A DNA stretch of 64,000 nt from a virus (IMGVR_UViG_3300033273_000550:102013-166012); one strand, 5' to 3'. Shown: positions 22,415 to 39,822, numbered from the stretch's first letter. Numbers and translations: made by a program. Notes: generated from the letters alone by a model not told the origin.

Positions 22415-22851
22415 TACCGGAGTTTTATAATAAAAAGTTTACTGTTATTACTAAAGAGAAAATCACTTTAGATTTACCGGATTATATTGTTAATTTTTAC
22501 GGTTCCTATGATAAGTGTTATTATGATATAAAAGATTACGAAATTAGCAATGATACGTTTTTTAACGGACATATTATTTTTAATATATTAGAGAAATATC
22601 AAGATGGAATAGAAAAAGTTATAGAAAGTATAATTGAACATAATATTTTAACTCCTAAAAATATCTTTGTTACCGGTATTCATCATCATGGTGTAGACTC
22701 TAAATGTTACTTAACAGATAGTATATGTTACTGTAGTTCCTGGGTGTTGCCTTTTGTATTGAATACAAGCAGGACAGAAAATAACTTATACGGAGAAATG
22801 CAAGTACATAGAATTACTATAAACGAAATTAAAATACAATCATCTATATGA
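22411..22851 (+). CDS. Hypothetical protein
   Basis: 146 aa, ATGA overlaps on both sides. Confidence 0.55.
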   Translation: MIPEFYNKKFTVITKEKITLDLPDYIVNFYGSYDKCYYDIKDYEISNDTFFNGHIIFNILEKYQDGIEKVIESIIEHNILTPKNIFVTGIHHHGVDSKCYLTDSICYCSSWVLPFVLNTSRTENNLYGEMQVHRITINEIKIQSSI

Positions 22852-23627: not shown

Positions 23628-23630
23628 GTT

Positions 23631-24422
23631 ATGATAAACTTAAATAAGAAAGGTACAGTAATACTAACACACTATAGATCTGGTGGTACTCAATTAAGGT
23701 CTATACTACATGGTGTTTTAGAATATATTTATGAGGTCCCTATTGACGATACGTGGGAACTTAATTTTGATGATCAAGATTACGGTTTTGATTACAATAA
23801 GTATCTTACTGAAATTTTCTGTAAAGAGCCGAATGGTTATCAAACTATTCAATTGAATAATCCAATGGTAAGTAGTTATATAGAAAGTACCGATTGGATG
23901 GAAAAAATTATAAAGGATTATGAAGTTATAGTTTTAGAGAGAACAGATATAAAAAAAGCTTTACTTTCATTACCGTTATGGGAAAAATTTATTAAAGAAG
24001 GGTATTACGACTTAGGACCTGACGGATGGACTAGCGGTAATATGAATATTTTTCACAACACTCTTAAGAAAGATCCTATACGGTATACTGAAATATACCA
24101 GGGTATACATTTTGAATTCAACGATTGGAAAAATTATAGAAAGTATTTAGATTTTCAATTAATGCTTTTTTTAAATAGAATTAGAAGCAATAGGTATATA
24201 GCTAGCAAATATAGTCTTCCTGTAATTTACTATAGTGAATACGAATTTGAAACTACTGATAAATTTATTCACCGATTTAAACTAAAAGATGGATCAGATA
24301 AATCCAGATTACGAGGAATGATTGATACTACTAGAAAACACAAAATACCTTATATAGAACAGGATTACTTAGAGTATTTCGACGATAAGACTAAGCAAGT
24401 ATTTAAGTATTGGCAACTATAA
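23631..24422 (+). CDS. Sulfotransferase-like protein
   Basis: ILTHYRSGGT loop, VIVLERTD, VIYYSEY. Confidence 0.55.
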   Translation: MINLNKKGTVILTHYRSGGTQLRSILHGVLEYIYEVPIDDTWELNFDDQDYGFDYNKYLTEIFCKEPNGYQTIQLNNPMVSSYIESTDWMEKIIKDYEVIVLERTDIKKALLSLPLWEKFIKEGYYDLGPDGWTSGNMNIFHNTLKKDPIRYTEIYQGIHFEFNDWKNYRKYLDFQLMLFLNRIRSNRYIASKYSLPVIYYSEYEFETTDKFIHRFKLKDGSDKSRLRGMIDTTRKHKIPYIEQDYLEYFDDKTKQVFKYWQL

Positions 24423-25363
24423 TGAGAAAAAAAGTAGCATTTTATACCTGTACCAACGGGTTAGGACATTACAAAAGAGTAAGCGAAGTAGCTTTACACT
24501 TAGTTAATGACTATGATGTTACTATATACTGTAGTAAATCACAGGCAGAGAAGATAGGTACTGTAGGTTATGCTGAATACATTTATTATACTCAAGATAA
24601 CATCAAATGGAACTTAGTAACTAATGGTGAAAGCGATAAAGCAATAGATACCTACCTTAGCTGGTTACTCCAGTACGGTTCTACAGTAAAAAATTACGAT
24701 ATAGTTATATCAGATAATCTAGCCGGGCTATGCCAATACGGTGATGTAATCTTAATGGGTTCTTTTTTCTGGAAAGATGTATTTAAGTCATACCTTGGGA
24801 ATAATAGATTAACAAGACTCGATGAACGTACATTATTAGATAAGCACCCTACTATTATTACTAATAAGTACGTTGAAACTCAATCAATGAAAGAGTATCC
24901 TTATAAGTTTCAAACAGGTTTTGGTGAATTAAGTAGCCCTCGTATAGCTCATAGCATAAAATACCTATATTATTTACCTCCTAGTAATGATTATGGGTTA
25001 GGTTATAGTAGAGTCATAGATAAGATTGCTAGATTAGATGTACCGTATATTAAATCCGGAGGAGACATACCAGATTTTCCTGAAGCTACTGCTATAATTG
25101 CAAGACCTGGTGTAGGTACTATCACACATTGTGTAAAAAATCAAATACCTCTTATAGCTCTTTATAGTACTAAAGATTCTGAAGAGATAATAGAGCTAGC
25201 TCATATAGTAGAAGAGTTAAAAATAGGATTTAAACAAGATATAGATGAACCTTTACGTTTAGATAAGTTCAAAATGATGAATAATAATACTATATTTTGT
25301 TATGCTGAGAAGTTTGAAGATCAAGGTTACAAAAAAATAGCAAACTATATAAAAGAGTTATGA
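24422..25363 (+). CDS. GT-B fold glycosyltransferase (GT28/GT1-like)
   Basis: NGLGHYKRV, DIVISD, IARPGVGTI..C....IP; ATG at the TAATG overlap preferred over TTG 24410. Confidence 0.7.
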   Translation: MRKKVAFYTCTNGLGHYKRVSEVALHLVNDYDVTIYCSKSQAEKIGTVGYAEYIYYTQDNIKWNLVTNGESDKAIDTYLSWLLQYGSTVKNYDIVISDNLAGLCQYGDVILMGSFFWKDVFKSYLGNNRLTRLDERTLLDKHPTIITNKYVETQSMKEYPYKFQTGFGELSSPRIAHSIKYLYYLPPSNDYGLGYSRVIDKIARLDVPYIKSGGDIPDFPEATAIIARPGVGTITHCVKNQIPLIALYSTKDSEEIIELAHIVEELKIGFKQDIDEPLRLDKFKMMNNNTIFCYAEKFEDQGYKKIANYIKEL

Positions 25364-26121
25364 AAATTGGTATAGTAGGCGTCGGAGTAGTAGGAAGCGC
25401 AATAAAGAAAGGGTTCGAAGAACTAGGACATGAAGTAAAAGTACATGATTTAAAGTTAGGTACGTACATAACAGATGTTTTAGATACTGAGATAGTATAC
25501 CTATGTCTTCCAACTAATTCTAAGCCTGATGGTTCTTGTGATACTGAGGCTCTCATCTGGACTATAGATGCACTATCAGATAAATACTACAAAGGTATCG
25601 TAGCTGTAAAATCAACTATCATACCAGGTACTTATGATAACCTAAAGGTAATGTTTCCTAGTGATAGACTATGCTTAGTACCAGAATTTTTAAGAGAAAA
25701 GTATGCGTTCGAGGATTTCACTCAACGTCATAATGTTTTAGTTATAGGTACTAATAATGAAGAATGTTCTAAAGCTGTAATTAAGTCCCACGGCTACTAC
25801 CCAAAGCAGGTTAAGATATTAACTCCATACGAATGTGAATATGTAAAGTACTTTTCGAATGTTTTTAAAGCGTATAAAACTGTCTTTGCTAATTCATTTG
25901 GTAAGTTATGTGAAAAAAACGGTGTTGATTATAGTAAAATATTAGATGTATATCATGCAGAAGATGTAAAAGAGACTGCTTACTTAAATTACTTTAAAGA
26001 AGGATTTGGCGGGATGTGCTTACCAAAAGACGTAAAAGCATTAGCTAAGTTTGCCGAAGATACCGATATAGATACTTTTAACTTTATACTTTCAGAAAAT
26101 AACAAATTTTTACATGAATAG
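25360..26121 (+). CDS. UDP-glucose/GDP-mannose dehydrogenase family protein (short, lacks C-terminal domain)
   Basis: GVGVVG Rossmann, CLPT, KSTI.PG, PEFLRE, KY..N, GFGGMCLPKD with catalytic Cys. Confidence 0.9.
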   Translation: MKIGIVGVGVVGSAIKKGFEELGHEVKVHDLKLGTYITDVLDTEIVYLCLPTNSKPDGSCDTEALIWTIDALSDKYYKGIVAVKSTIIPGTYDNLKVMFPSDRLCLVPEFLREKYAFEDFTQRHNVLVIGTNNEECSKAVIKSHGYYPKQVKILTPYECEYVKYFSNVFKAYKTVFANSFGKLCEKNGVDYSKILDVYHAEDVKETAYLNYFKEGFGGMCLPKDVKALAKFAEDTDIDTFNFILSENNKFLHE

Positions 26122-26956
26122 AGTTAGATACGCATTTGAAGAATTTAAGGATTTGAAATCTTTTGATATTATACCTTATCAAGATATTATCGATAGGTAT
26201 AACAGTATTCAAATGTCTACATATAATGATTCTCTAGAAAAATCAGATAAAAACACTCAACCGGTAAATTCGACTAAAGAGAAATTTAACCCAAAGCTAG
26301 CTTGGAAAAAACACCCACCTCTCCGATTTAGATACCAGTCTCCAAATACCGGGCTTTCTACATTAGTAAAAGCAGATACTGCTTCTATGGATATGCAAGG
26401 TTTAGGAGAAACATGGGATCATTTTGCTTATTTTACTATACCGTATGAATTCGTTAATAAATTTCAAACAAAAGTTTTAGAGAATCAAATTATCACACCC
26501 TTTAGGTTGTTTATGAAAGAAGCAATAACACAAGGATTAGGACCTAAAGAAATAATGAAATTGAGAAATAAGTATGATAAACTTTACCCTGATCTATATA
26601 ATCATCAAGATTTTAGACCTAAAGTTCCTTATTGGAGATATATGTTAATAGTAGATCAGTTTATTTCAATACTATATGACGGTGTAGTTTATCCTATCTG
26701 TTACAACAATCCAAGTGAGATACTAGACAGAGGAACCCACCGTTCATTAATGATGGCAGGTTCTTATTGTGATGTACCTGTATTAATTTGGTACCCTGAA
26801 CTAGGAGGCAAAGAATTAAAAGAAGAGTGGAAAATTAAATTACAACCAGGGTTTTCTGATAAGAATTTATACATGATACCAGATTATAAAAATAAAATTT
26901 TAAGGTTCTATGATGATGGGGAGGAATTAGAATACACAAATAACAACTTAATATGA
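26114..26956 (+). CDS. Hypothetical protein with ParB/Sulfiredoxin-like motif, paralogue A
   Basis: SI..DGVVYPI...ILDRGTHR...DVPV; shares DLK.FDI..D..DRY and KYDKLYPD with 31263. Confidence 0.55.
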   Translation: MNRVRYAFEEFKDLKSFDIIPYQDIIDRYNSIQMSTYNDSLEKSDKNTQPVNSTKEKFNPKLAWKKHPPLRFRYQSPNTGLSTLVKADTASMDMQGLGETWDHFAYFTIPYEFVNKFQTKVLENQIITPFRLFMKEAITQGLGPKEIMKLRNKYDKLYPDLYNHQDFRPKVPYWRYMLIVDQFISILYDGVVYPICYNNPSEILDRGTHRSLMMAGSYCDVPVLIWYPELGGKELKEEWKIKLQPGFSDKNLYMIPDYKNKILRFYDDGEELEYTNNNLI

Positions 26957-27627
26957 AAAGTATAGCTATAATAATACATGCTAGACAAAAAAGCACTAGA
27001 TGTCCTAATAAGCATTTAAGACCTCTCAATAACTCAGGAGACTGTATATTGGATATTGCAATACGCAATGTAGTAGATCTTAAAAATGTAGAAGAAAAGT
27101 ATCTAGCAGCACATGAACAAGCTATTAAAGACCATTACATACCTGGTATAGACATACTACATAGGGAATATAATTCTGTTGCTCCTGGAAATGCTCATCA
27201 TAGTATAATGTATAAACATTTAGAGAATGTTAAATCAGACTATATTATAAATTACAATCCATGTCAACCTTTTCTTAAGGTAGATAAACTACAGGAAGTT
27301 ATAGATTGGTTTAAGAAATCTCCAATTGAAAGTGCCATTACTGTAAAAGAATCTAAAAACTTTTACTGGGAAAAAAATGCAAAACCAGTTAATTTTAAAC
27401 CTAACGATAGGTTATCTACAACTTCTGGGCCTTCTTTATGGGAGGCAACACATTCATTAGTTATGTATAAACGTAGCTATATGTTGGAAAACTGGGAATT
27501 ATTTCCTAATTTGTACTATGAACCATATCCCTACCTCATTGACTGGCCTGAAGAAGAGTTAGTAGATGTTGATACTGAATTAGATTTTAAACTTGTAAAA
27601 ACTCTTTATAATGAAATACGTAATTGA
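26953..27627 (+). CDS. Acylneuraminate cytidylyltransferase (CMP-nonulosonate synthetase, NeuA-like)
   Basis: IHARQKSTRCPNKHLR, NPCQPF, VDVDTELDF. Confidence 0.85.
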   Translation: MKSIAIIIHARQKSTRCPNKHLRPLNNSGDCILDIAIRNVVDLKNVEEKYLAAHEQAIKDHYIPGIDILHREYNSVAPGNAHHSIMYKHLENVKSDYIINYNPCQPFLKVDKLQEVIDWFKKSPIESAITVKESKNFYWEKNAKPVNFKPNDRLSTTSGPSLWEATHSLVMYKRSYMLENWELFPNLYYEPYPYLIDWPEEELVDVDTELDFKLVKTLYNEIRN

Positions 27628-27910
27628 TATAGATGATACTATTTGTAAAGAAGAAGGACCAGTAATAGATAGACTACCTTTCAAAGATAGAATAGAAAAG
27701 ATAAATAATCTATATGATGAAGGACATACCATTATATTCTATACAGCAAGAGGTAATAAAAGCGGTAGAGGAGAAGCATATTATAGACCTATAACAGAAG
27801 CACAATTAGAAGCTTGGGGGGTAAAATATCATCATTTGTATTTCAAACCTTTCGATGCCGACATATTTATAGATGATAGAGGAGTACACCCAGATGAATT
27901 TTTTAAATGA
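27611..27910 (+). CDS. Capless HAD phosphatase (EcbF/BcbF capsule-biosynthesis type)
   Basis: VIDIDDTI, FYTARG, KP..D.FIDDR in 99 aa. Confidence 0.85.
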   Translation: MKYVIDIDDTICKEEGPVIDRLPFKDRIEKINNLYDEGHTIIFYTARGNKSGRGEAYYRPITEAQLEAWGVKYHHLYFKPFDADIFIDDRGVHPDEFFK

Positions 27911-28497
27911 TACTCAATATAAAAAAAGTTTTAGAAGCGGTTAATAATCCAATAAATGATCCTTGGACTCATTATATTGTAGACGACATTCTCAACTACG
28001 ATTTTACCTATGAATCAAGTTTTGTATTTGACCATGATACATTCTTTCAGCTTATAGGTGAACTTGAATACTATAGACATGAAATATTAAAGACTTATAA
28101 CCCTATTAGGTTAAGAGAAAATGCTCAAGGAGAACCAAGAGAAGAAGTAAAAAATACTTGGGCTAGAGTAAATTGGTTGACAGAACCGCCTTATGTCGAT
28201 AGAGAGATTCATATGGACAATATTAATAAAATATGGACATGTGTTATATACTGCCATCCAGTTGATAATACCGGTACTGTATTAATAGAAGCTGACGGTT
28301 CTACTGTTGCCAAGGAAATAGAGTGGAAGCAAAATAGAGCTTTAATATTCTCACCAGGTAATTCTAATCAACCTACTTGGCATAAAATAATTAATAGTAC
28401 TAATAAAACAAGAAGAGCTATAGCACTTAATATTCAAACTAATAACGATAAACTAAAAGTACCTTATTATGTTTACGATAGGGATCAACAATTATGA
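27907..28497 (+). CDS. 2OG-Fe(II) oxygenase-like protein
   Basis: IHMD, TCVIY, GT, EWKQNRALIF, TWH, RRAIALN. Confidence 0.7.
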   Translation: MILNIKKVLEAVNNPINDPWTHYIVDDILNYDFTYESSFVFDHDTFFQLIGELEYYRHEILKTYNPIRLRENAQGEPREEVKNTWARVNWLTEPPYVDREIHMDNINKIWTCVIYCHPVDNTGTVLIEADGSTVAKEIEWKQNRALIFSPGNSNQPTWHKIINSTNKTRRAIALNIQTNNDKLKVPYYVYDRDQQL

Positions 28498-29231
28498 TGA
28501 AGCAGTTTTTTAATATAGTAGTTCCGATGGCAGGAAGAGGTTCAAGGTTTCAAGAACAAGGGTATACTGACTCTAAACCGTTTATTGACGTAAACGGTAA
28601 ACCTATGATACAAAGAGTAATTGAAAATTTAGATATTGAATTTGATAAAAATTTTAAATTTATTATAATTTGTCAACAAGCAGATTTTGATAAATATGAT
28701 TTTAGTTTCTTTAATGAAATAGTAGGTCATGATAATATAGAAATAATTAAATTACAAAGTACTACTCAAGGAGCTGCTTGCACTCTATTGACAGCAAAAT
28801 ATTATATAGATAATAAAATTCCCTTACTTAGTTTTAACTCTGATCAACTTATAGACTATAATGCTAACGAAACTTTTAGTAGAATGAGTCTTCATGATGG
28901 TGGAATACCTTGCTTTATCGGTGAAGGTAATGATTGGAGTTATGCTAAAACTAATGAAGACGGGTATGTAGTAGAAGTAGCAGAAAAAAAGCAAATTTCT
29001 AACGATGCTACAGCGGGCTACTACTACTGGAGCAGAGGCTCAGATTTTGTTAAGTATGCCGAACAGATGATAGAAGCTAACGATAGGGTGAATAATGAAT
29101 TTTATGTAGCACCTGTATATAACTATGCTATTAAGGACGGTAAACATATTGTGATAACACATGTGGATAAGGTGTATGAATTAGGTACACCTGAATATCT
29201 ACAGAATTACTTAAATGGACTTACAAAATAA
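28494..29231 (+). CDS. Sugar-phosphate nucleotidyltransferase (GT2_BcbE-like), copy 1
   Basis: VPMAGRGSRF..GY..SKP.IDV.GKPMI, GAACT, NSDQ, VAEK..IS..AT.G.YYW, LGTPE. Confidence 0.85.
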   Translation: MMKQFFNIVVPMAGRGSRFQEQGYTDSKPFIDVNGKPMIQRVIENLDIEFDKNFKFIIICQQADFDKYDFSFFNEIVGHDNIEIIKLQSTTQGAACTLLTAKYYIDNKIPLLSFNSDQLIDYNANETFSRMSLHDGGIPCFIGEGNDWSYAKTNEDGYVVEVAEKKQISNDATAGYYYWSRGSDFVKYAEQMIEANDRVNNEFYVAPVYNYAIKDGKHIVITHVDKVYELGTPEYLQNYLNGLTK

Positions 29232-30096
29232 AGATACATTTTTAGATTATAGAAAAGAACAAGAGAAGAGTATACTAGCGAAAGCAGATATTACAAATCC
29301 TCTTAGTTCTTTACTTACTGTAGAGGTTAATACTACTGAACTTTGCAATAGAAGATGTGTGTTTTGTCCTAGATACGATAAAGATGTTTACCCTAACCGT
29401 AACCTTAATATGACTGTAGAAATAGCAGAATTGATAGGTAAAAATTTAAAAATAGATAACTACAAAGGTAAAGTATCTTTTAGCGGATTTAGTGAAAACT
29501 TTATTAATAAGAAATTCGTTGATATAGTTGCTAAATTAAGAGAGTACTTACCTGATAGTTTATTTGAATGTAACACTAATGGGGATTTCGTCACTGAGGA
29601 TTACGTTAGACGTCTATATGATGCAGGATTAGATATACTTTATATTAATCTTTATGATGGAATAGATCAAATAGATAAATTTAATGCTATAATGAAACCT
29701 TTTAAGCAAGAGCAGTATAAGTATAGAGCTCATTACTCTCAAGCTGATTATGGACTTAATTTAAATAATAGAGGAGGTTCTATAACTTGGTTAGGCACTG
29801 ATGAAGACTCAGTGGAGAACTTAAAAGGTACACCTTGTCATTATCCTTTTTATAAGATGTTTGTTGATTGGAATGGAGATGTGATTTTCTGTTCAAATGA
29901 TTGGCAAAAAGAAATTAAAATAGGTAATTTGTCGAAACAGAGACTTAAGGATGTATGGTTCAACGATAAAATCAATAATATAAGAAAAAGACTTATAAAA
30001 GGAGATAGATCAGAAAGTCCTTGCAACAAATGTTCGGTTAACGGACAAATGTTCGGTAAAACTAGTTTTGAAATACTTAAAAAAGCTATCGTATGA
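29215..30096 (+). CDS. Radical SAM/SPASM(twitch) protein
   Basis: CNRRCVFC; C-terminal C..PF..DWNGDV.FC..DW...IGN...CNKC. Confidence 0.9.
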   Translation: MDLQNKDTFLDYRKEQEKSILAKADITNPLSSLLTVEVNTTELCNRRCVFCPRYDKDVYPNRNLNMTVEIAELIGKNLKIDNYKGKVSFSGFSENFINKKFVDIVAKLREYLPDSLFECNTNGDFVTEDYVRRLYDAGLDILYINLYDGIDQIDKFNAIMKPFKQEQYKYRAHYSQADYGLNLNNRGGSITWLGTDEDSVENLKGTPCHYPFYKMFVDWNGDVIFCSNDWQKEIKIGNLSKQRLKDVWFNDKINNIRKRLIKGDRSESPCNKCSVNGQMFGKTSFEILKKAIV

Positions 30097-30584
30097 TTGT
30101 GAGTATGACAAATAAAAACAGAGGACTAGGGTTAGAACTATCTAAACGGTTTGATAATGTATTTGACGGATTTGAAAACTCCTCAGATGTATTTATTAAT
30201 ATAAGGCATAATAGTTTTAACCAGACAGAAATGTTAATGTATGCATATGAGCAATGGAAAGAAGAGAAAAAGACTATAGTTAACATTATAAGCCGTAGTA
30301 AATACCCTAATATTTCTAAAGGTTATTTATATTCTGCATCTAAAGCAGCATTAAGTCATTTATCTACTAATCTTAAAATGAATAGTACTAAAAAATGCAG
30401 AATAATTGATATAAATCCTGGATTATTAGAATCTGATCTACCTTCTTTAAGTTATAAGGAAGTAGCAGATGTAATAGAATACTGTATTAACCTACCTTTT
30501 CATATAGAGGTAGGAGAATTATCATTATGGCATAATACTCCGTATAATGTCGTATCAAAAATGAAAGATGAAAGAAGAGCTTAA
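30093..30584 (+). CDS. Miniature short-chain dehydrogenase/reductase
   Basis: TNKNRGLG degenerate Rossmann, IVNI.S, YSASK, INPG. Confidence 0.75.
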   Translation: MIVSMTNKNRGLGLELSKRFDNVFDGFENSSDVFINIRHNSFNQTEMLMYAYEQWKEEKKTIVNIISRSKYPNISKGYLYSASKAALSHLSTNLKMNSTKKCRIIDINPGLLESDLPSLSYKEVADVIEYCINLPFHIEVGELSLWHNTPYNVVSKMKDERRA

Positions 30585-31266
30585 CATTTATATAGGATAT
30601 GATTCAAGACAAGATGTTACACCGAATTATTCTAAAGTAACAAACTCACCTTTTATGGTGTGTTATGAATCTATAAGACATTTTAACCAAGAAGTATTTA
30701 TTACAGCTCTTAAATTAGATGAACTTATAGAGCAAGGCATATATACTAGAGAGGTAGATCCTTTAGCGAGTACTGAGTTTACCTATAGCAGGTTTTTAAC
30801 TCCTTATCTTAATGGATTCGAAGGAATTGCGTTATTTTGTGACTCAGATTTTCTATGGCAGTGCAATATAACAGATATTCTTGAGTACTATGATCAAACA
30901 AAAGCAGTCATGTGTGTACAACACGACTATGTACCTAAATTAGAACAAAAAATGGATGGGTACAAACAGACTGTCTACCCTAGAAAAAATTGGTCTAGTT
31001 TAATGTTATTTAACTGTGCTCATCCGGATTGCAAAAATTTAACTCCCGAAAATGTAAATACAAAAAGTCCAAAGTATTTACATAGAATGGAATGGACCAC
31101 AGATGATAATATAGGTAACTTACCTTTATGGTATAATTGGTTGGAAGGTGAATATAATGGAGATACAGAACCTTACGCTATACATTATACTAACGGAGGA
31201 CCTTGGTATAAAACATATAACGGAGATTATAAGCAAAACTGGATAGATATTTACAATAAGTTATGA
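30568..31266 (+). CDS. GT8-like nucleotide-diphospho-sugar transferase
   Basis: IGYD.R, STEFTYSRF, FCDSDF (DxD), YPRKNWSSLMLFNC, HYTNGGPW. Confidence 0.85.
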   Translation: MKEELNIYIGYDSRQDVTPNYSKVTNSPFMVCYESIRHFNQEVFITALKLDELIEQGIYTREVDPLASTEFTYSRFLTPYLNGFEGIALFCDSDFLWQCNITDILEYYDQTKAVMCVQHDYVPKLEQKMDGYKQTVYPRKNWSSLMLFNCAHPDCKNLTPENVNTKSPKYLHRMEWTTDDNIGNLPLWYNWLEGEYNGDTEPYAIHYTNGGPWYKTYNGDYKQNWIDIYNKL

Positions 31267-32210
31267 TAAATTGGTGGAAGAAAGATATATTTGACGATTT
31301 AAAACCTTTTGATATTTTATCTTTAGAAGACCTATTAGATAGATACCAGAAAACTTTGAAGACTTTTCCTGAGTATGAACAGCAAGCTGAAGAAGGAAGA
31401 TTTTTTTTAGGAATAAAATCTAAAGACTTATCGGATCCTGATGTTAAATACTTTCATGAAAAATATAACCATCCTAACTGCGATTTAACAAAAGAACCTA
31501 GAGAGAAAATTTGTATGGTTTATAAGGAAGGAAGGAACTTCAATAAAGAAGAATACCATACAGAAGGTAGTATAAAATTTACAGGAGGTACATCAAATTA
31601 CAATGGAAGAGATGGACAGATACGAGGTGGATGGGCAACACCAGAAATAGAAGAGTTTCATTTAGGTCCAGTTCGCGACGGTAAATTAACAGGCGATTGG
31701 ATATACCTTGAGGTACCTTATAATTTAACATATAATTTTTTAGAATTAACAAATAACGGTGTCCCTATACAGATTGCCAAAAAATTTGTTAAAGAAGTAG
31801 AATCAGAAAAAGAAGTAACTTTAGATGTTATAAAGAAATATGAAGAGAAGTATGATAAACTGTATCCTGATTGGAGTCATGATTTTCCTATAAACGGTTA
31901 CTTCCAAATGAAAAAGGACGGGTTACTGTTCCCTGGTGTTTGGTGGCACAGTCATATTATATGTGGACATAGTTACCATAGAATGATAATGACAAGTTTC
32001 AATAAGATGAATTTTCCTTTTGTAATGCCTGTGCCTGCAAATCATAACGGTAGTTGGTATGCTTGTTCGAAATATTGTTCGTATCTTTTTAATAACGAAC
32101 TACATTACCTAACAGCAGAAATTAATATAGAAAAACAAAAAGTATTTTACTCTTTTACTAAAGATCAAAATTGGGCTATAGAGAGAAACAAAGAGTTAAT
32201 TAAAACTTAA
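31263..32210 (+). CDS. Hypothetical protein with ParB/Sulfiredoxin-like motif, paralogue B
   Basis: QMKKDGLLFP...IICGHSYHR...FPFV; paralogous to 26114. Confidence 0.5.
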   Translation: MINWWKKDIFDDLKPFDILSLEDLLDRYQKTLKTFPEYEQQAEEGRFFLGIKSKDLSDPDVKYFHEKYNHPNCDLTKEPREKICMVYKEGRNFNKEEYHTEGSIKFTGGTSNYNGRDGQIRGGWATPEIEEFHLGPVRDGKLTGDWIYLEVPYNLTYNFLELTNNGVPIQIAKKFVKEVESEKEVTLDVIKKYEEKYDKLYPDWSHDFPINGYFQMKKDGLLFPGVWWHSHIICGHSYHRMIMTSFNKMNFPFVMPVPANHNGSWYACSKYCSYLFNNELHYLTAEINIEKQKVFYSFTKDQNWAIERNKELIKT

Positions 32211-32214
32211 TTTA

Positions 32215-33141
32215 ATGCTTGAACCTATAACATATGCATATTTAGAGACTACTAATTACTGTAATCTAGACTGCTCTTTCTGTAACAGAAAAGAAGTTAT
32301 TGGAGCATTACAACACATGCCTCTTCCTAGATTTAGAGAAATGTTAGAAAAGATAAAACATCATCCTATAAAAGAAGCTAAATTAATGGGTATGGGGGAA
32401 CCTATGTTACATCCTCAATTTGATGAAATCTGTAAAACTTTTAAAGAATACTTTCCAGATGCTTTTTTAATTGTTGCAACTAACTGTCAATATCCGATAA
32501 GACCAGGTACTAAAATAGGAGATAAGTTTGAAAACTGTATGAAGTATATCGATTTGTTATATTTTAGTATAGATGGGTATAAAGAGTCATACGAAAGAGA
32601 TAGAGCACCTGCTAAGTGGAGTAAATTAATTAAGTTTTTAGATGACTTTAAAGGTATGAACAGGTATAACTGTAGAGTTACCTGTAATTACGTGGTTAAC
32701 CCAGATAACGTATATGATATACAGATTATTAAAGACGAAATAGTAGATGTATACGATTTAGAAGAACTTAGATTAAATATTGCTCAAAACTGGTCTGAGG
32801 ATGAAAGCATGCCAGGTGGTTATTCTCAAGAAGATATTAAGTATATTAAAGATAACTGGAAAGAAAATATTAAAGGTAAAGACAATTGGGAATTCGACCA
32901 ATGTTTTTGGGTAAAAGAAGGAGTTTACACTACAGTTGAAGGTCATGTTAAAATGTGCTGTTTGAATACAGGTGCTGAACCGTTTGGTAACCTGTTTGAC
33001 GAAGATATAGATACAATTAGAATGTCTAAAGAGTATACAGCAGTAAGAGAAGGTTGTGCTACTAACAATCCTACAAGTCATTGTAAGAATTGTTCCTATA
33101 AAGAACTTTCTCCTATGTTAGGGTTGATTAGAAGTGAATGA
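32215..33141 (+). CDS. Radical SAM/SPASM(twitch) protein
   Basis: CNLDCSFC, GMGEP, C-terminal CFW...EGHVKMCC...FGNL...CKNC. Confidence 0.9.
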   Translation: MLEPITYAYLETTNYCNLDCSFCNRKEVIGALQHMPLPRFREMLEKIKHHPIKEAKLMGMGEPMLHPQFDEICKTFKEYFPDAFLIVATNCQYPIRPGTKIGDKFENCMKYIDLLYFSIDGYKESYERDRAPAKWSKLIKFLDDFKGMNRYNCRVTCNYVVNPDNVYDIQIIKDEIVDVYDLEELRLNIAQNWSEDESMPGGYSQEDIKYIKDNWKENIKGKDNWEFDQCFWVKEGVYTTVEGHVKMCCLNTGAEPFGNLFDEDIDTIRMSKEYTAVREGCATNNPTSHCKNCSYKELSPMLGLIRSE

Positions 33142-34016
33142 AACGAATTAAAATAGATAATATTAACAATAAGGTACTAGTAGCAGCAGGATGCTCACAC
33201 ACAGCTGGTTGTGCATTTTACAAAAACCCTAAATTTAGAGTAAATTCACAAGGAGTATACGAAGATGTTATAGAGTGGGCTTCTGAAGAACTAGCAGATT
33301 TATATAAAGTACCTTGTTCTTTAAAATTAGTTGATGAAAAACTAAGTTGGCATGGTAAATTAAAAGACCTACTTAATTTTGATACTAATATTAACTTAGG
33401 TTTCGGAGGAGCAGGTTATGAAGCTTGTAGTACTGCTTTAAAGCACTACATATTTAAAAAAAGTACATTAGATAACCACCTTATTATACTTCAGCTACCT
33501 TCTCCAAGCAGGGTAATGATACCTGATACACAGAATGAAAAGTATAATATAAACTTAACTAGCGACTATATAAACGACCCGGACAGATCTTACGCAGAGA
33601 ATAGTCTTCTACAAAACTTTTTTGAACCAGGTTTTTATGAAGTAAAGTTTTTACAGGATATACTTTATTTACAGGATTATATTGAAACTAAGGGGGGGAA
33701 TTTTCGTATAATTACTGACTTTTTATACCCTTCTTTTCTTACCGGTAAATTTTTAAATAAACATAAGGTAGAATTCGAAACATTCTTCAGAAGAGGTAGT
33801 TATAAACCTTTTTATAACTTTGATATAAACTTTATTTTAGATAAATTGAATACTATAGCAATACCGGCTACCGAAAGTTATAAAACATTAGCTAGTCAAG
33901 GTTTAGTATTTGATGATAATCACTTATCTGAAGACGGTAACGCTCAATTAGCTAATCTCATTTATAAGAATTTAGAGAATTATTCTAAATTTAAATTAAG
34001 TACAACAGTTATATAA
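33138..34016 (+). CDS. SGNH hydrolase-fold protein
   Basis: AAGCSHTAG, NLG.GGAG, DDNHLS..GN. Confidence 0.7.
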   Translation: MKRIKIDNINNKVLVAAGCSHTAGCAFYKNPKFRVNSQGVYEDVIEWASEELADLYKVPCSLKLVDEKLSWHGKLKDLLNFDTNINLGFGGAGYEACSTALKHYIFKKSTLDNHLIILQLPSPSRVMIPDTQNEKYNINLTSDYINDPDRSYAENSLLQNFFEPGFYEVKFLQDILYLQDYIETKGGNFRIITDFLYPSFLTGKFLNKHKVEFETFFRRGSYKPFYNFDINFILDKLNTIAIPATESYKTLASQGLVFDDNHLSEDGNAQLANLIYKNLENYSKFKLSTTVI

Positions 34017-35047
34017 TGAAAAAGCACTTAAAAAATATTGTTCGAAAAAGCAACTTACTTGATAAAACAGCATACAAGTATGTTTTAGATCAGAATGAAA
34101 GAAATTTTTTAATGCATAAAGGTAAATGGCAAGATTTTATTAATAGTTTAAGACAAGAAGATTTTTTCTTTTATCCTAATTCTAAAAAATTTGTAAGGAA
34201 GTTAGCTAAGCATATTAGAGTTAGAGAATATAATATAATGTTAACACCAGGCTCTGATACAGCTATCAAAACTATCTTTGAAGCATTCGAGTTAAAAGGT
34301 AAGAACATTGTTACTACTAATTACTGTTTTCCAATGTACGATGTTTATGCTGATCTATACGAAGCAAACTTAGTCAAAGCTAGATATAAAAGAGAGAGAT
34401 TTAAAATAAGAAATTTAATAGAAAAAATTAATGAGGATACAGAGTTTATTATTATCGCTAACCCAAACTCTCCTTTAGGTGATCTATATACATTCGATGA
34501 GATTAAAATGTTATTAGACACAGGTAAATACGTTGTTATAGATGAGGCTTATATAGAATTAACAGAAGCAGAATCAGTCACGACACTAATAGACGAATAT
34601 CAAAATCTTATAGTAACAAGAACTTTTTCAAAAGGCTTAGGAGCAGCAGGCTGTAGATTAGGTTATATAGTTAGTTGTCGAGAAAATATGGAAATACTTT
34701 CTAAATTTAGAATGATGTATGAAGTTAACTCCATAGGTTTACTATACGGAGAATACATCTTAGATAACTACCCAGAATATCTTCGTTACTTACAAACGAC
34801 TATAAAGCAGAAAAAATTATTAGTAAGTCAGCTACAAAATATGCATTATAATATTGTAGACACGGACTGTACTTGGTTTTTTATTGAAAAAACCGAAAGA
34901 TTAGAACAAATATTTAGAGACCATTGGGTTAGTTATAGAACCTTAACCCTACCGGGTAGGAGAAGTTCTGAATGGATTAAGTTTAATTACGATTTAGCAC
35001 TTAGAAATACTTATTTTATTAACGATTTATTAAATGAAGTACGTTAG
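34016..35047 (+). CDS. PLP-dependent class I/II enzyme (HisC/CobD-like aminotransferase or decarboxylase)
   Basis: LDQNE, YP, PGSD.AI, NPNSPLG, DEAY, RTFSK.LG.AG.RLGY. Confidence 0.9.
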   Translation: MKKHLKNIVRKSNLLDKTAYKYVLDQNERNFLMHKGKWQDFINSLRQEDFFFYPNSKKFVRKLAKHIRVREYNIMLTPGSDTAIKTIFEAFELKGKNIVTTNYCFPMYDVYADLYEANLVKARYKRERFKIRNLIEKINEDTEFIIIANPNSPLGDLYTFDEIKMLLDTGKYVVIDEAYIELTEAESVTTLIDEYQNLIVTRTFSKGLGAAGCRLGYIVSCRENMEILSKFRMMYEVNSIGLLYGEYILDNYPEYLRYLQTTIKQKKLLVSQLQNMHYNIVDTDCTWFFIEKTERLEQIFRDHWVSYRTLTLPGRRSSEWIKFNYDLALRNTYFINDLLNEVR

Positions 35048-36353
35048 TAGATTTGATAGAAGCCTAATCGAAGGAGTTTTTAAAGAATCGTATGTATATT
35101 CGATCAAAGAACTTCCTTTAAACCTAGCTTATTTCCAAGATAGTAGACAAAATATACGTTGGGAGTATACCTACGGTAGTATAGGTCTTGTAAATAAAAT
35201 AAATGATTTTTATAGAGTCGAGACGAGATTATTAGAGCTTATAACTTCTGGTGATTCACCTTCTAGTTTAAGACAGAGACTCAATATAGTTAATACTTTA
35301 TTACTTTGTAACTTAGATACTGACGTTCCTGTACATACCTCAATAAGTCCTGAACATAATTTACAAGGAGAAGTAGACCTTAAGGATATAAAACCAGGTG
35401 ACATTTATTTTATAGCTCATCCTGGACATACTAGAGTAGAAGGTTCAATCTTTCTTAATATACCTTTAAAAAATAGTCTACTTTACATTAATAAAAAACA
35501 TAATTTAACTCTTAAACAAAATAACAATGTTCAAAGAGTTCATACAATCGGAAAATTATTAGAGAGCTTTAATAGCAGATTTACAGATAAGGATAAAAAA
35601 TACTGGTATAGTTTTAGCAGAAACAAACCCCTCGATCCTACAGTACGCAATAGATTAAAAACTCATGATAAGACAGATGTAAGAATTCTTAAGCTCGGTA
35701 GGATATTAGAAAGAGGGAGTAAAATTAAAAGATCCTCTCACCCTTCTGCTCAATACCTAAAAGAGACATATAAATCTTTTAATAATTTCTGCAATCAGTT
35801 ATTTACTAATAATATTAAAATTTATACTCAAAGTATAGGTAATGTTAGGCATAAATTTTTTGAAAATAGCAATTCTATATTGGAGGATAAATTAAAGTTA
35901 AAACTTAACACTAATCAGAGTGTTTATAACCTGATTAATAATAAAGTTAATTACATAGATCTACCTGCAAGGAATGAAGCAGAGAGATTTGATTTTGATA
36001 CTAAATATGAAAAACTAATACATAGCGAACTTACTAATGTACTTAGTAAAGCTCCTAGTAAAGATCATAAAATGTTTACAAATAATAGTTTTAAGTATAT
36101 TCAAACTAAAGAAACTAATATAGAAGATTTGGTAAGACTAAATAACTATAAAGGTTTTATTATATTTGTAGATAGTGATCAAATTAACTATATTAATAGA
36201 GCATTAGAGGAATTGTTATTCTGTATACCTTATGAGGTAAGCTTATCTCGTACAGAAAATAATGCTATAAAAATTGTAAACTGTGCACACGAGGGATGGA
36301 AGAGTAGTGAACTTAGAAAAGAAGTAGTTATAGATAATAGATTTTTATTATGA
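35034..36353 (+). CDS. Hypothetical protein (possible distant ParB-like HPG.TR motif)
   Basis: 439 aa, operonic; FIAHPGHTR motif. Confidence 0.5.
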   Translation: MKYVSRFDRSLIEGVFKESYVYSIKELPLNLAYFQDSRQNIRWEYTYGSIGLVNKINDFYRVETRLLELITSGDSPSSLRQRLNIVNTLLLCNLDTDVPVHTSISPEHNLQGEVDLKDIKPGDIYFIAHPGHTRVEGSIFLNIPLKNSLLYINKKHNLTLKQNNNVQRVHTIGKLLESFNSRFTDKDKKYWYSFSRNKPLDPTVRNRLKTHDKTDVRILKLGRILERGSKIKRSSHPSAQYLKETYKSFNNFCNQLFTNNIKIYTQSIGNVRHKFFENSNSILEDKLKLKLNTNQSVYNLINNKVNYIDLPARNEAERFDFDTKYEKLIHSELTNVLSKAPSKDHKMFTNNSFKYIQTKETNIEDLVRLNNYKGFIIFVDSDQINYINRALEELLFCIPYEVSLSRTENNAIKIVNCAHEGWKSSELRKEVVIDNRFLL

Positions 36354-37165
36354 AAATAGGGTTTTTAACAAAATACAAACATCTCCCAGAATTTTCTTCT
36401 TTTGTTGAGAGTAAATTTGAATGTATTGACTTACATAAAGGAATAGTCGAAGTAGATTATATTTTCTCAGCTCCTAATTATACCTTAAGTGAAGTTGATG
36501 ATAGTTTAGTTGAGAATACAAAATGTAAAGCTGTTATTACCCCTTCTACAGGTACTAATCATATTAAAACAAATCTTGTACCTATTATTAGCATTAAAAA
36601 TGATAAGATATTAGAAAGTATAACCTCTACTGCAGAACATAACTTACTTTTAATATTAAGGCTTGCTAGAGAGATAGAACCATATAGACAGTTAAGTTCC
36701 TTAAACTTAGGAATATTAGGGTATGGAAGATTAGGTAAAATACTTCATCGTATTGCTACTCCTATTTTTAAAAATATATACACAGCCGATAAAGAATATC
36801 AAGATAAAGATTTCTATTCTAAAACAGACATACTCAGTATTAATATAGATCTAACTGAAGATAATTATGATTTTATTAATAAGAGTTATGTAGAGAAATT
36901 TAGTAAAAATATCTATATTGTTAATACAGCAAGAGGAGAAGTAGTAAACGAAGAAGAAATAAGTATTCTTACTTACGATGGTAAGGTATTAGGATATGGA
37001 ACTGATGTTATAAAAGAAGAGTTTAATTCTACTGCTACGACTATGAAAAGTTATTATAATCCCAAGATTATAGTAACAAGACATATAGGGGGTACTGCTA
37101 TCGAAGCTCAAGAAACTGCTTATAGACATTTAATTAATAAAGTACTTAATGAAAATAATATCTGA
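36350..37165 (+). CDS. D-isomer-specific 2-hydroxyacid dehydrogenase (SerA-like)
   Basis: STGTNHI, TAEH, GILGYGRLG, NTARGEVV, TDV, HIGG. Confidence 0.9.
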   Translation: MKIGFLTKYKHLPEFSSFVESKFECIDLHKGIVEVDYIFSAPNYTLSEVDDSLVENTKCKAVITPSTGTNHIKTNLVPIISIKNDKILESITSTAEHNLLLILRLAREIEPYRQLSSLNLGILGYGRLGKILHRIATPIFKNIYTADKEYQDKDFYSKTDILSINIDLTEDNYDFINKSYVEKFSKNIYIVNTARGEVVNEEEISILTYDGKVLGYGTDVIKEEFNSTATTMKSYYNPKIIVTRHIGGTAIEAQETAYRHLINKVLNENNI

Positions 37166-37979
37166 ACTTTGTCAAAACCATAACGGTAATCTAGATGTAC
37201 TAGATAATATGATTAAAATGGCGGCTGTTGGTAGCGATATAGTTAAAATACAGTCTATAAAAGCATCTACTTTTACTTACAGAGAAGAATATGAGAGCTT
37301 TAGACCTTATGAACCAGAATTTTTACGACTAAAAGGATTAGAACTCAGTAAAGAAGATGAGGAGTTTTTTATTTTTAAATGTTTAGAGTATGGAGTAGAA
37401 TCTATGACAACCGTTTTTGTTCCTCAACATGCTAGCTATTTTAATAACTTAGGTTATGACAATTTGAAACTATCCGGATATTCCATACCAGCTTTTGACT
37501 ATGGTAAAAAATTAAAAAACTTTAAATTTAAAAGATTATTTTTCTCTACTTCTAGTCTTACATTAGAAGAAATAAAAGAAACTGTAAAGAATCTAGATGA
37601 AATGAATATAGAGTACTATATGATGCAATGTACCTGTATTTATCCAACACCGTTAGAAAAACTTAATCTACAGAATATAGAATTCTATAGAAAGTTAGGA
37701 ATAAAAAACGTAGGTTTAAGTGATCACTCTAATCCTCATCAAGATGGTTTACTTTCTTCTAAGTTAGCAATATTTCAAGGAATTGATGTACTGGAAAGAC
37801 ATTTTACTATTTTAGACATTGAAGATACTAGAGACGGTAAAGTTTCAATTACTCCTAAGATGTTATCAGAACTAAAAAGGTTCAGTAGAATGTCCAAAGA
37901 AGATCAGTATAGAGAGTTAAATGAGTTTACAGAAACTCAAATTTTTAATCACGACTACTATAGAGGTAGGTTTAAATGA
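37149..37979 (+). CDS. neuB: N-acetylneuraminate synthase family (NeuB-like ulosonate synthase), no C-terminal SAF domain
   Basis: ISELCQNHNG, VKIQ, QC...YPT, GLSDHS, LERHFT, D..VS.TP. Confidence 0.9.
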   Translation: MKIISELCQNHNGNLDVLDNMIKMAAVGSDIVKIQSIKASTFTYREEYESFRPYEPEFLRLKGLELSKEDEEFFIFKCLEYGVESMTTVFVPQHASYFNNLGYDNLKLSGYSIPAFDYGKKLKNFKFKRLFFSTSSLTLEEIKETVKNLDEMNIEYYMMQCTCIYPTPLEKLNLQNIEFYRKLGIKNVGLSDHSNPHQDGLLSSKLAIFQGIDVLERHFTILDIEDTRDGKVSITPKMLSELKRFSRMSKEDQYRELNEFTETQIFNHDYYRGRFK

Positions 37980-38017: not shown

Positions 38018-39382
38018 ATGAAACCAGTAAATTTTATTATATTTGACTTAGATGGAGTCTTAATAGAAACCAAAGACTTACATTTTGAGGCTTTAAACAA
38101 GGCACTTGGTGAATATGCAATAGATATGTCTGAACATCTTGCTATTTACGACGGTTTAACCACTTCACAGAAACTCAAAGTACTATCAGAAAAAAAAGGA
38201 CTACCAATCGAATTACATAAGGAAATTTGGAAAAAAAAGCAGTTGATAACTTTTGAAATGCTTAGAAGTATTAAACCTGATAAAAGACTACAGAATATAA
38301 TGTCGGAGTTAGTTAAAAAAGGTTATAAGTTAGGATTATGTACTAACTCTATACGTAAAACTGCTATTACAGTATTATCTAAATTAGGAGTAGCAGAATA
38401 TATGGATTTAATTCTGTCTGGAGAAGATGTAACTAACCCAAAACCTCATCCTGAAATATACTGGAAGGCTATATCTAAAATGAGCGTACTTCCGGAAGAG
38501 ACTTTGATAGTAGAAGATTCTCCATTCGGTTTATTAGCTGCATCTAGAAGTAAATCTAATATACTTAGAGTAAATAAACCTAAAGATGTTACATTAGAGA
38601 ATATAGAAAAGAAGTTAAAAGAAATACAGACTGGTATGAAACAACCAACACCAGCTTGGAGAGATGAAAACCTTACTGTGCTTATTCCAATGGCAGGAGC
38701 AGGAAGTAGATTCCAACAGGCAGGTTATACTTTTCCTAAACCTCTCATCGATGTAAAAGGAAAACCAATGATTCAAGTAGTAGTAGATAATTTAAATATA
38801 AAAGCTACATATGTTTACGTTGTACAGAAAGAACATAGACAAAAGTACAATTTAGATACCCTTCTTAATTTAATTACTCCTGGCTGTAAAATAGTAGAAG
38901 TAGACGGCATAACAGAAGGAGCTGCTTGTACAGCACTACTTGCTAAAGAGTATATCGATAATGATAATGCTTTATTCTTTGCTAATTCAGACCAGTATGT
39001 AGACTGGGATAGTAATGAGTTTTTATATAAGATGAATGAAACTGAAGCTGATGGCGGTATTGTAACATTTAAAGCTACTCACCCTAAGTGGTCTTTTGCT
39101 AAAGTAAACAAAGAAGGAATAGTAACTGAAGTTGCAGAAAAGAATCCTATATCAGATATCGCAACTGTAGGATTTTACTATTGGAAAAAAGGTTCTGATT
39201 TTGTAAAGTATGCAGAGGATATGATTAAAAAAGATATTAGAGTTAATAATGAATTTTACGTATGCCCTGTATTTAATCAAGCTATTGAAGATAATAAGAA
39301 AATTAGAACATTCAATATAAATAAAATGTGGGGATTAGGTACTCCTGAGGATCTTAAATACTACTTAGAAAATTTTAAATGA
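38018..39382 (+). CDS. HAD-IA phosphatase fused to GT2_BcbE-like nucleotidyltransferase (copy 2)
   Basis: FDLDGVL, KPHPEIY, VEDS, then IPMAGAGSRF...KP.IDVKGKPMI...GAACT...NSDQ...LGTPE. Confidence 0.9.
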   Translation: MKPVNFIIFDLDGVLIETKDLHFEALNKALGEYAIDMSEHLAIYDGLTTSQKLKVLSEKKGLPIELHKEIWKKKQLITFEMLRSIKPDKRLQNIMSELVKKGYKLGLCTNSIRKTAITVLSKLGVAEYMDLILSGEDVTNPKPHPEIYWKAISKMSVLPEETLIVEDSPFGLLAASRSKSNILRVNKPKDVTLENIEKKLKEIQTGMKQPTPAWRDENLTVLIPMAGAGSRFQQAGYTFPKPLIDVKGKPMIQVVVDNLNIKATYVYVVQKEHRQKYNLDTLLNLITPGCKIVEVDGITEGAACTALLAKEYIDNDNALFFANSDQYVDWDSNEFLYKMNETEADGGIVTFKATHPKWSFAKVNKEGIVTEVAEKNPISDIATVGFYYWKKGSDFVKYAEDMIKKDIRVNNEFYVCPVFNQAIEDNKKIRTFNINKMWGLGTPEDLKYYLENFK

Positions 39383-39822
39383 AACTAATAGCTCACAGAG
39401 GTAACATAACTGGCCCTAAACCTGAATTAGAAAACTCTCCTGATTATATTTTTGAAGCTATCAAAAAAGGTTTTGATGTAGAGATAGATGTTTGGTACAG
39501 TACAGACGGTAAGTTTATGCTAGGTCACGATAATCCTGATTATAAATTTCCTTTTGAGCTTTTAGAAAATTGGTACAGTAGATTATGGATACACTGTAAA
39601 AATTATTTAGCTTTAGCTAAGTTAGTAGAAATAGATAAAGGAGGTCATAAACTTAACTACTTTTGGCACGAAGAAGATTTTGCTACCCTCACCTCAAAAG
39701 GGTACATATGGAGTATACATCCAATAGATTATGGTATATTAGTTATGCCTGAAAGTTCTAACACAGTTCAAACAACTACTACGAAAGGTATATGTAGTGA
39801 TTTTATAGGAGAGTATGCCTAA
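39379..39822 (+). CDS. Minimal glycerophosphodiester phosphodiesterase/PI-PLC-like protein
   Basis: IAHRG, ENS, DVEIDV, LGHD, WIHCKN. Confidence 0.8.
   Translation: MKLIAHRGNITGPKPELENSPDYIFEAIKKGFDVEIDVWYSTDGKFMLGHDNPDYKFPFELLENWYSRLWIHCKNYLALAKLVEIDKGGHKLNYFWHEEDFATLTSKGYIWSIHPIDYGILVMPESSNTVQTTTTKGICSDFIGEYA

Follow-up and report, generated by a model that had tools for sequence, protein, structure and literature searches.

A divergent NeuB-like synthase and a NeuA-like cytidylyltransferase in a large phage genome: a putative route to a CMP-activated ulosonic acid

Related pathways and the phage locus

Sialic-acid-like sugars shape cell-surface recognition, including recognition by phages. 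The NeuB/NeuA, PseI/PseF and LegI/LegF systems each combine a TIM-barrel synthase of the PF03102 family, with a common set of metal and phosphoenolpyruvate (PEP) residues, and a CTP_transf_3 enzyme within a glycan locus. We describe here a virus locus that shares all of these features, in a 64,000-nucleotide stretch (the window; G000:C1:102013-166012) from a virus record 191,416 bp long (CheckV completeness 100%). Within it, a NeuB-like synthase gene (37149-37979) and a NeuA-like cytidylyltransferase gene (26953-27627) lie in an island of glycan genes, all coordinates being those of the window unless a contig is named. The locus differs from the three systems in that its synthase lacks the SAF domain, carries a YYRGRF tail and belongs to a separate clade (support 100/100), and in that NeuC, LegG and PseG are all missing; the partners are instead a nucleotide-sugar-dehydrogenase-like enzyme and a D-2-hydroxyacid dehydrogenase.

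A second point of comparison is the pathway to cytidine monophosphate (CMP)-activated 2-keto-3-deoxynononic acid (KDN) of Bacteroides thetaiotaomicron (BT1713-BT1715) and Prymnesium parvum, for which a phosphorylated KDN route and its enzymes are described; three enzymes and one central metabolite suffice for such routes (PMC6200933). The phage locus resembles it in that no 2-epimerase accompanies the synthase and cytidylyltransferase and that a capless HAD phosphatase is encoded nearby, but the phage HAD is of another subfamily and is tied to an NTP-transferase, and there are extra conserved dehydrogenases. A preliminary description of the window, made from its sequence alone, had proposed a CMP-nonulosonate pathway that would make KDN or, failing that, an unknown ulosonic acid. 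Family profiles, folds and cassette context agree on a phage-encoded synthase and cytidylyltransferase for an activated ulosonic acid, and the fallback is the product that best fits the evidence. We propose, with fair confidence and from sequence comparisons, that the synthase and cytidylyltransferase genes represent a viral form of an uncharacterised cellular cassette of wide distribution, whose product would be a CMP-activated ulosonic acid, and that this product is probably an acidic sugar not yet described rather than KDN. The papers searched contain no account of the cassette or of what it makes, nor of phage NeuB genes of this type.

A NeuB-family synthase without a SAF domain

The 276-residue product of the open reading frame (ORF) at 37149-37979 (+ strand) belongs to the NeuB family, as the preliminary description had stated. 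It matches PF03102 (E 7e-32; 111.2 bits against a cut-off of 22.1) over profile positions 3-231 of 241, and its AlphaFold2 model is a TIM barrel (pLDDT 92.9) whose best folds in the Protein Data Bank (PDB) are the SAF-less Leptospira homologue 6NCS, Neisseria meningitidis NeuB and Campylobacter jejuni PseI (Foldseek probability 1.00 and TMq 0.75-0.79 to 6NCS, 1XUU and 8H2C). The top PDB match by sequence is PseI. The Leptospira borgpetersenii protein 6NCS (290 aa), the top Foldseek match (E 2e-18, TM 0.77/0.75) and likewise a SAF-less barrel, differs in that the phage NeuB is only 21% identical to it and scores 31 bits, as compared with 48-52 bits for SAF-bearing NeuB and PseI; we know of no assigned function for 6NCS.

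Eleven residues (K33, Q35, K107, S133, Y165, P166, S191, H193, E216, H218 and D229) are invariant across 67 NeuB homologues, and these align with the positions of N. meningitidis NeuB that we take to be its metal and PEP ligands (presumably K53, Q55, K129, H215, E234, H236 and D247). At two further positions the phage protein departs from the meningococcal enzyme, with Ser for E134 and Cys for N184. The departure from the usual motifs noted previously is evident in the sequence, with SELCQNHNG and KLSGYS present, and the scores fall far below the equivalog cut-offs of both TIGR03569 (NeuB/LegI; 114.2 against 399.65 bits) and TIGR03586 (PseI; 84.5 against 340.25 bits).

The SAF (antifreeze-like) domain closes the sugar site of the partner subunit. 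The phage protein has no match to the SAF profile and at 276 aa is too short to hold the domain, which bears out its reported absence; the polypeptide ends 28 residues past the barrel with a helical tail containing the motif YYRGRF.

A separate clade of NeuB-like proteins

The phage protein falls in a clade recognised by its CQNH motif and by the YYRGRF tail at the position that SAF would occupy. In alignments, AExCQNHxG replaces AEIGxNHxG, and additional signatures are an RPY motif, an insertion after SDHS, the segment ERHFTxL..TxDGxVS and a C-terminal NRxYYRGRF; cellular members have KxASYDC where the phages have KLSGYS. Residues C8, Q9, N10, H11, Y270 and R274 are invariant in the clade. 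The nearest relatives beyond the phage family (clustering at 50%) are approximately 315-325 aa long with 35-43% identity, and these also lack SAF.

A maximum-likelihood tree was built from 52 sequences, with reference proteins labelled by genomic context as PseI (the Aureibacter pseBCF...I locus), NeuB (a Moritella neuABC locus) and LegI-like (a canonical Leg locus). It splits the CQNH clade from a SAF-bearing clade that holds all three references (100/100), and the viral proteins form a fully supported group (100/100) nested among cellular CQNH sequences. The preliminary description had suggested placing the protein against Neu, Leg, Pse and KDN clades; the tree covers the first three, whose references are clearly set apart from it. 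We also note that a cellular locus on a 76-kb metagenome contig (L014) carries a canonical legionaminic-acid set with a SAF-bearing NeuB as well as a CQNH-type cassette, which makes redundancy of the two synthase types improbable.

A cellular cassette with phage counterparts

CQNH-type NeuB proteins are encoded in 235 stretches of a one-genome-per-species prokaryote collection, and neighbouring genes were counted in 76 loci with a recovered NeuB ORF, among the best 80 of these stretches. The organisms of the best 80 include Bacteroidota, Pelagibacteraceae, SAR116, Prochlorococcus, Thaumarchaeota, the candidate phyla radiation (CPR), Asgard archaea and others, with the closest cellular match (40%) in Pseudotenacibaculum. 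Two neighbours predominate: a CTP_transf_3 protein (PseF-like, 168 bits, below cut-off; 57 of the 76 loci) and a CBS-domain nucleotide-sugar dehydrogenase with UDP-ManNAc dehydrogenase as its best match (55 loci). A D-2-hydroxyacid dehydrogenase (2-Hacid_dh) is present in 29 loci, a GT28/MJ1255-like protein in 26, a BFO_1060-family glycosyltransferase-like protein in 22 and a HAD_2 protein in 12. The usual order is GT28-like, CBS-dehydrogenase, CTP_transf_3, 2-Hacid_dh and NeuB, followed by a methyltransferase and the BFO_1060-like gene. In nine Thaumarchaeota loci (for example L090:9940-11904; the others are L067, L083, L095, L104, L108, L112, L114 and L127), CTP_transf_3 is fused to a LarA-type nickel-pincer 2-hydroxyacid racemase encoded directly after NeuB, and this fusion and 2-Hacid_dh never occur in the same locus.

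The phage holds homologues of the GT28-like protein, the nucleotide-sugar dehydrogenase, CTP_transf_3, 2-Hacid_dh and NeuB but not of the BFO_1060-like transferase, and ORFs 24410, 25360, 36350 and 37149 match the cassette families by BLAST. The 317-residue product of ORF 24410 (24410-25363, +) is a GT28/MJ1255-like GT-B protein with a score of 0.95 to Glyco_tran_28_C and Glyco_trans_1_3 clusters in an Atlas feature search and a weak NCBIfam MJ1255 match; it has 25 BLAST matches to GT28-like neighbours of cellular CQNH-type NeuB, and could be either a transferase or a PseG-like nucleoside diphosphate (NDP)-sugar hydrolase. The adjacent ORF 25360 (25360-26121, +) encodes a short nucleotide-sugar-dehydrogenase-like protein of 253 aa (Pfam UDPG_MGDP_dh_N and central domain) that gives 16 BLAST matches to cassette CBS-dehydrogenases, the best of them to a similarly short protein (286 aa) from a CPR genome. 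It consists of the Rossmann and central domains only, without the CBS and C-terminal nucleotide-binding domains, and keeps GxGxVG and the catalytic cysteine motif GFGGxC(L/F)PKD. We note that there are two such truncated UDP-glucose/GDP-mannose-dehydrogenase-like proteins in the genome, the second of 271 aa (L011:7663-8478), which are 28% identical to each other and share both the retained catalytic Cys motif and the lack of a C-terminal nucleotide-binding domain.

ORF 36350 (36350-37165, +) encodes the D-isomer-specific 2-hydroxyacid dehydrogenase (Pfam 2-Hacid_dh_C, E 7e-21), with 29 BLAST matches to the dehydrogenase adjoining cellular CQNH-type NeuB. The recurrent company of CQNH-type NeuB with a nucleotide-sugar-type dehydrogenase and either 2-Hacid_dh or LarA hints that a second carboxylate or some other alpha-hydroxy-acid group may be present on the sugar. 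The 3' end of ORF 36350 overlaps the start of NeuB, and a class I/II pyridoxal phosphate enzyme resembling HisC and CobD is encoded 2 kb upstream (34016-35047, +; Pfam Aminotran_1_2, E 2e-33; NCBIfam hisC 171 bits, below cut-off). This arrangement would suit a product that is not CMP-activated, with the NeuB product either reduced by 2-Hacid_dh, a family that includes 2-keto-aldonate reductases (GhrB/TkrA), or transaminated at C2 by the HisC-like enzyme, and the acid then attached non-glycosidically. We consider this very improbable, as CTP_transf_3 accompanies three-quarters of the cellular NeuB loci and the LarA fusion nine more, BFO_1060-like transferases follow the cassette in 22 loci, and an aminotransferase is not among its frequent neighbours.

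A divergent cytidylyltransferase

The cytidylyltransferase reported at 26953-27627 (+) is a genuine, very divergent member of the CTP_transf_3 family and the presumed CMP-ulosonate synthetase. It matches the Pfam profile with E 4e-10 (40.2 bits; cut-off 22.6) and is the only copy in the genome above this cut-off. Alignment with the PseF-like enzymes of the cellular cassette extends over its full length (hhalign probability 97.1%, E 5e-11, 215 columns), and its N-terminal nucleotide loop, of the AR..S.R.P.K type, reads HARQKSTRCPNKH. All NCBIfam equivalog scores are far below cut-off (18.5 against 205.7 bits for PseF; at most 28.6 against at least 193 for KdsB subfamilies), and phmmer finds no PDB match. 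Across the phage clade the protein is 68-78% identical.

The capless HAD and its nucleotidyltransferase partners

The capless HAD (27611-27910, +), also correctly recognised in the preliminary description, shows the DxDxT and DD motifs, with IDIDDT, YTAR and FIDDRG within 99 residues and no cap insert. This mini-HAD has no Pfam match; in NCBIfam it matches the EcbF-BcbF and BT0820 family, and its PDB matches are 9IQW (E 1e-11), 1XPJ and 2OBB (E 1e-11 to 0.01 overall), the first two of which it aligns with end to end. It thus resembles the EcbF/BcbF phosphatases of capsule loci, BT0820 (9IQW, 1XPJ, 2OBB) and the mini-HADs of T4-like phages, none of which, to our knowledge, has an assigned substrate. 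Homologues (43-45% identity) are present in 391 phage records, among them those of cyanophages and T4-like coliphages, and none of the 391 matched the NeuB described here; in the best-matching cyanophage records the mini-HAD adjoins genes annotated as nucleotidyltransferases or carbohydrate kinases. Homologues in many cyanophage records (for example in Synechococcus phage S-CAM3; L044, 6001-6321) are annotated as 'phosphoheptose isomerase', a label that looks wrong given their HAD motifs and matches to solved HAD structures.

In this genome the start of the mini-HAD gene overlaps the end of the cytidylyltransferase gene, and the next two genes are a 2OG-Fe(II) (2-oxoglutarate- and iron-dependent) oxygenase-like gene (27907-28497, +; weak Pfam match), which is a lineage-specific insertion absent in relatives, and a sugar-1-phosphate nucleotidyltransferase (NTP-transferase) gene (28494-29231, +), whose product resembles PDB 4EVW and is 81-85% identical to its orthologues. 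In related loci an extra gene separates the mini-HAD from the cytidylyltransferase, and the mini-HAD gene overlaps that of the NTP-transferase. The latter protein is 48% identical to the C-terminal half of a fusion between HAD_2 (beta-phosphoglucomutase-like) and NTP-transferase domains that is encoded at 38018-39382 (+) and appears to be an independent NDP-sugar module. This fusion is 54-58% identical to genes of Synechococcus phages S-CAM9, S-PRM1, DSL-LC03 and B23, and a 147-aa ORF that follows it (38018-39822 together) has 42% identity in S-CAM9 (L043). Because Synechococcus phages share the fusion and the 19-kb glycosyltransferase cluster inspected around it in S-CAM9 has no NeuB, we reject it as part of the ulosonate route. 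These contexts, with homologues in records that did not match this NeuB, therefore point to phosphatase-plus-nucleotidyltransferase modules for NDP-sugars; the mini-HAD most likely serves the neighbouring NTP-transferase in a BcbE/BcbF-like pair making an NDP-sugar, and is probably not a ulosonate-phosphate phosphatase.

These assignments bear directly on the proposal that synthase, HAD and cytidylyltransferase follow the logic of a KDN pathway, in which NeuB would join PEP to mannose-6-phosphate (Man-6-P) or another sugar phosphate, the mini-HAD would dephosphorylate the product and CMP-KDN would then be formed. Such a route is consistent with the lack of both NeuC and PseG, with the overlap of the mini-HAD gene and the end of the cytidylyltransferase gene, with the conservation of the mini-HAD across the phage clade (72-89% identity) and with the HAD_2 genes near CQNH-type NeuB in a minority (12) of the cellular loci. 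However, the HAD is of the EcbF/BcbF/BT0820 type, and the KdsC/YrbI profile (TIGR01670) finds nothing in the whole genome at E <= 0.1; in relatives the mini-HAD lies apart from the cytidylyltransferase, overlapping the NTP-transferase, and its many phage homologues are in records that did not match this NeuB, where they sit, in the best-matching cyanophage records, alongside nucleotidyltransferase-like genes. The true companions of NeuB are the D-2-hydroxyacid dehydrogenase, the nucleotide-sugar-dehydrogenase-like protein, the GT28-like protein and CTP_transf_3, the first three of which are foreign to the KDN pathway and not needed for it. The KDN interpretation is thus not upheld, and we regard this route as quite unlikely.

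Genome-wide absences and a second sugar cluster

The reported lack of NeuC extends beyond the window, as Epimerase_2 (NeuC/LegG) was not found anywhere in the complete genome. The PseG profile likewise finds nothing genome-wide even at E <= 1, and there is no Maf-type transferase in the genome. The corresponding claim that no dehydratase-aminotransferase set is present holds within the window but not for the genome, where SDR, DegT and GNAT genes are located at approximately 23.7-29.1 kb. These belong to a second sugar cluster outside the window (G000:C1 ~21,300-31,100; L011:5319-15133), which contains GT1 and GT2 glycosyltransferase genes, the 271-aa short nucleotide-sugar-dehydrogenase-like gene, GNAT, SDR and DegT genes, a gene for a 132-aa cytidylyltransferase-like protein, a second SDR gene and another glycosyltransferase gene. 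The best NCBIfam match of the DegT protein is PseC (246 bits, below cut-off), with additional likeness to ArnB, and that of the GNAT protein is PseH, also below cut-off; the SDR protein is closest to UDP-4-keto-pentose/UDP-xylose synthase. The cluster may represent a 4-amino-4-deoxy-arabinose (Ara4N)-like or amino-dideoxyhexose route.

A pseudaminic (Pse) or legionaminic (Leg) acid-like diamino nonulosonate could be assembled if the distant SDR, DegT and GNAT enzymes made a 2,4-diacetamido-trideoxyhexose nucleotide, ORF 24410 acted like PseG, and NeuB and the cytidylyltransferase completed the pathway. The PseC and PseH matches fit this, as do the PseI match of NeuB, the full-length alignment of the cytidylyltransferase with PseF-like enzymes and the Glyco_tran_28_C or Epimerase_2 genes adjoining some relatives of the NeuB clade. 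We nonetheless think it unlikely: the DegT and GNAT matches are far below equivalog cut-offs, the SDR is nearest to the pentose enzymes rather than to PseB or LegB and, with the adjacent dehydrogenase, suits an Ara4N-like route, and the PseG search is empty. Moreover, the NeuB module and the DegT cluster are approximately 100 kb apart, and only about 10 of the 76 cellular loci have a DegT gene near the cassette.

Conservation in related phages

Over 1,700 homologues of the phage NeuB are present in metagenomes, and the 120 best-scoring are nearly all full-length (~277 aa), many of them marine (Tara) and on contigs of up to 182 kb. In all 28 related loci the module is located directly upstream of the tail sheath gene; synteny reaches approximately 20 kb upstream, and gene order matches that of the syntenic relative L045 and of the loci L014 and L049 (Pseudotenacibaculum) with the cellular cassette. 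Neither NeuB nor the cytidylyltransferase has a tblastn match in 50,697 deposited phage records, among which no cultured relative carries the module. A canonical LegI-like query matched only three of the phage records, one being a Moritella viscosa bacterial contig, and plasmid matches are only 25-29% identical and in mixed contexts.

Comparison of the segment 11012-43102 with three relatives (L045, L002 and L005) shows a bimodal pattern of conservation, in which six putative sugar-nucleotide enzymes of the island reach 66-85% identity: the cytidylyltransferase (76-77%), the mini-HAD (72%), NTP-transferase 28494 (81-85%), radical SAM protein 32215 (75%), NeuB (66-69%) and the HAD-NTP-transferase fusion (73-75%). 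The remaining island genes, which are glycosyltransferases and genes without an assigned role, are at 28-51%, including ORF 24410, which shares 39% identity with the L045 orthologue at the syntenic position. For the tail sheath the value is 61-62% in L002 and L005; since all six enzymes exceed it, those that probably make activated sugars are under stronger constraint than the sheath.

The glycan island

All genes of the window are on the + strand. The sheath protein (gene at 40831-42582) shares 64% identity with its counterpart in Flavobacterium phage vB_FspM_immuto and is distantly T4-like. The glycan island is approximately 29 kb long and extends from a fibre gene (8294-9970), whose product has an S74 chaperone domain, to the sheath gene; it contains glycosyltransferases, 2OG-Fe oxygenases, radical SAM enzymes, nucleotidyltransferases and the genes of the NeuB module. 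Several of its genes lie between or beside those discussed above. ORF 26114 (26114-26956, +) encodes a 280-aa protein that adjoins the cytidylyltransferase and is conserved there (36% identity to its syntenic orthologue), with no match in Pfam or NCBIfam. To the right of the NTP-transferase are accessory genes encoding a radical SAM/SPASM enzyme (29215-30096, +), found in only one of the 28 related loci, and a 163-aa SDR fragment with two ORFs without an assigned role (30093-32210, +), found in few of them. A second radical SAM/SPASM enzyme (32215-33141, +) is strongly conserved as part of the core (71-87% identical in 18 loci). It is followed by a gene for a 292-aa protein (33138-34016, +) whose orthologues are 27-33% identical and which has no protein-family or PDB match; BLASTP finds no mutual similarity between ORFs 26114 and 33138, and we therefore reject the idea that they are 'ParB/Srx-like paralogues'.

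Between the HisC-like enzyme and the 2-hydroxyacid dehydrogenase is a gene for a 439-aa conserved protein with an invariant HPGxTR motif (35034-36353, +; AlphaFold2 pLDDT 81), which was considered as a candidate ulosonate transferase. Alignment with BFO_1060-like transferases gives an hhalign probability of 0.1%, and the candidate was rejected. Foldseek finds nothing for its model at E <= 0.001, and residues 258-439 have a weak likeness to GT-A folds (VIA-align Z <= 4.6).

Proposed pathway and implications

If the phage genes are a version of the cellular cassette, NeuB would condense PEP with an aldose to give a 3-deoxy-2-ulosonic acid, and the dehydrogenase-like enzyme and the 2-hydroxyacid dehydrogenase would tailor its precursor or its product. 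The cytidylyltransferase would then form the CMP-activated donor, which transferases of the island would use, at a late stage of infection, to modify virion proteins or the host surface. The reaction order, substrate, product and glycosylation target in this scheme are those that we infer from the observed family membership, catalytic residues, clade placement, cassette recurrence and synteny.

Several observations weigh against the scheme. Searches revealed no recognisable ulosonate transferase, whether BFO_1060-like, Maf-like or other, and the cytidylyltransferase is so divergent that BLAST gives no link to that of the cassette. The phage dehydrogenase lacks the CBS and nucleotide-binding domains, and may therefore act on another substrate than its cellular counterpart. 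Strong conservation of the mini-HAD within the NeuB module leaves room for a phosphorylated intermediate, and KDN specificity is formally compatible with the tree, since this holds no KDN-9-phosphate synthase reference.

A more specific version of the cassette reading, which we see as conceivable but rather unlikely, is that the product represents a new class of CMP-activated ulosonic acids that also bear an alpha-hydroxy-acid group, shared by marine microbes and phages and used on the phage particle. An example would be a nine-carbon dicarboxylic 'ulosaric' acid, for which either a uronic acid would serve as precursor or the dehydrogenase-like enzyme would oxidise the terminal carbon; the D-2-hydroxyacid dehydrogenase (LarA in Thaumarchaeota) would then oxidise or epimerise the alpha-hydroxyl. 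In that case SAR11, Prochlorococcus, Thaumarchaeota and Bacteroidota would have an acidic surface sugar, as yet undescribed, in common with their large phages.

Some of the most abundant bacteria and archaea of the sea carry this type of NeuB with its partners, as does a large clade of uncultured marine myoviruses with genomes of 166-191 kb. The identity of the product would add a sugar to the nonulosonic-acid family and would explain a gene set present in the surface-glycan loci of SAR11, Prochlorococcus and Thaumarchaeota. For the phages, the module would provide a concrete case of a phage-made acidic glycan whose biosynthetic genes are better conserved than the tail sheath.

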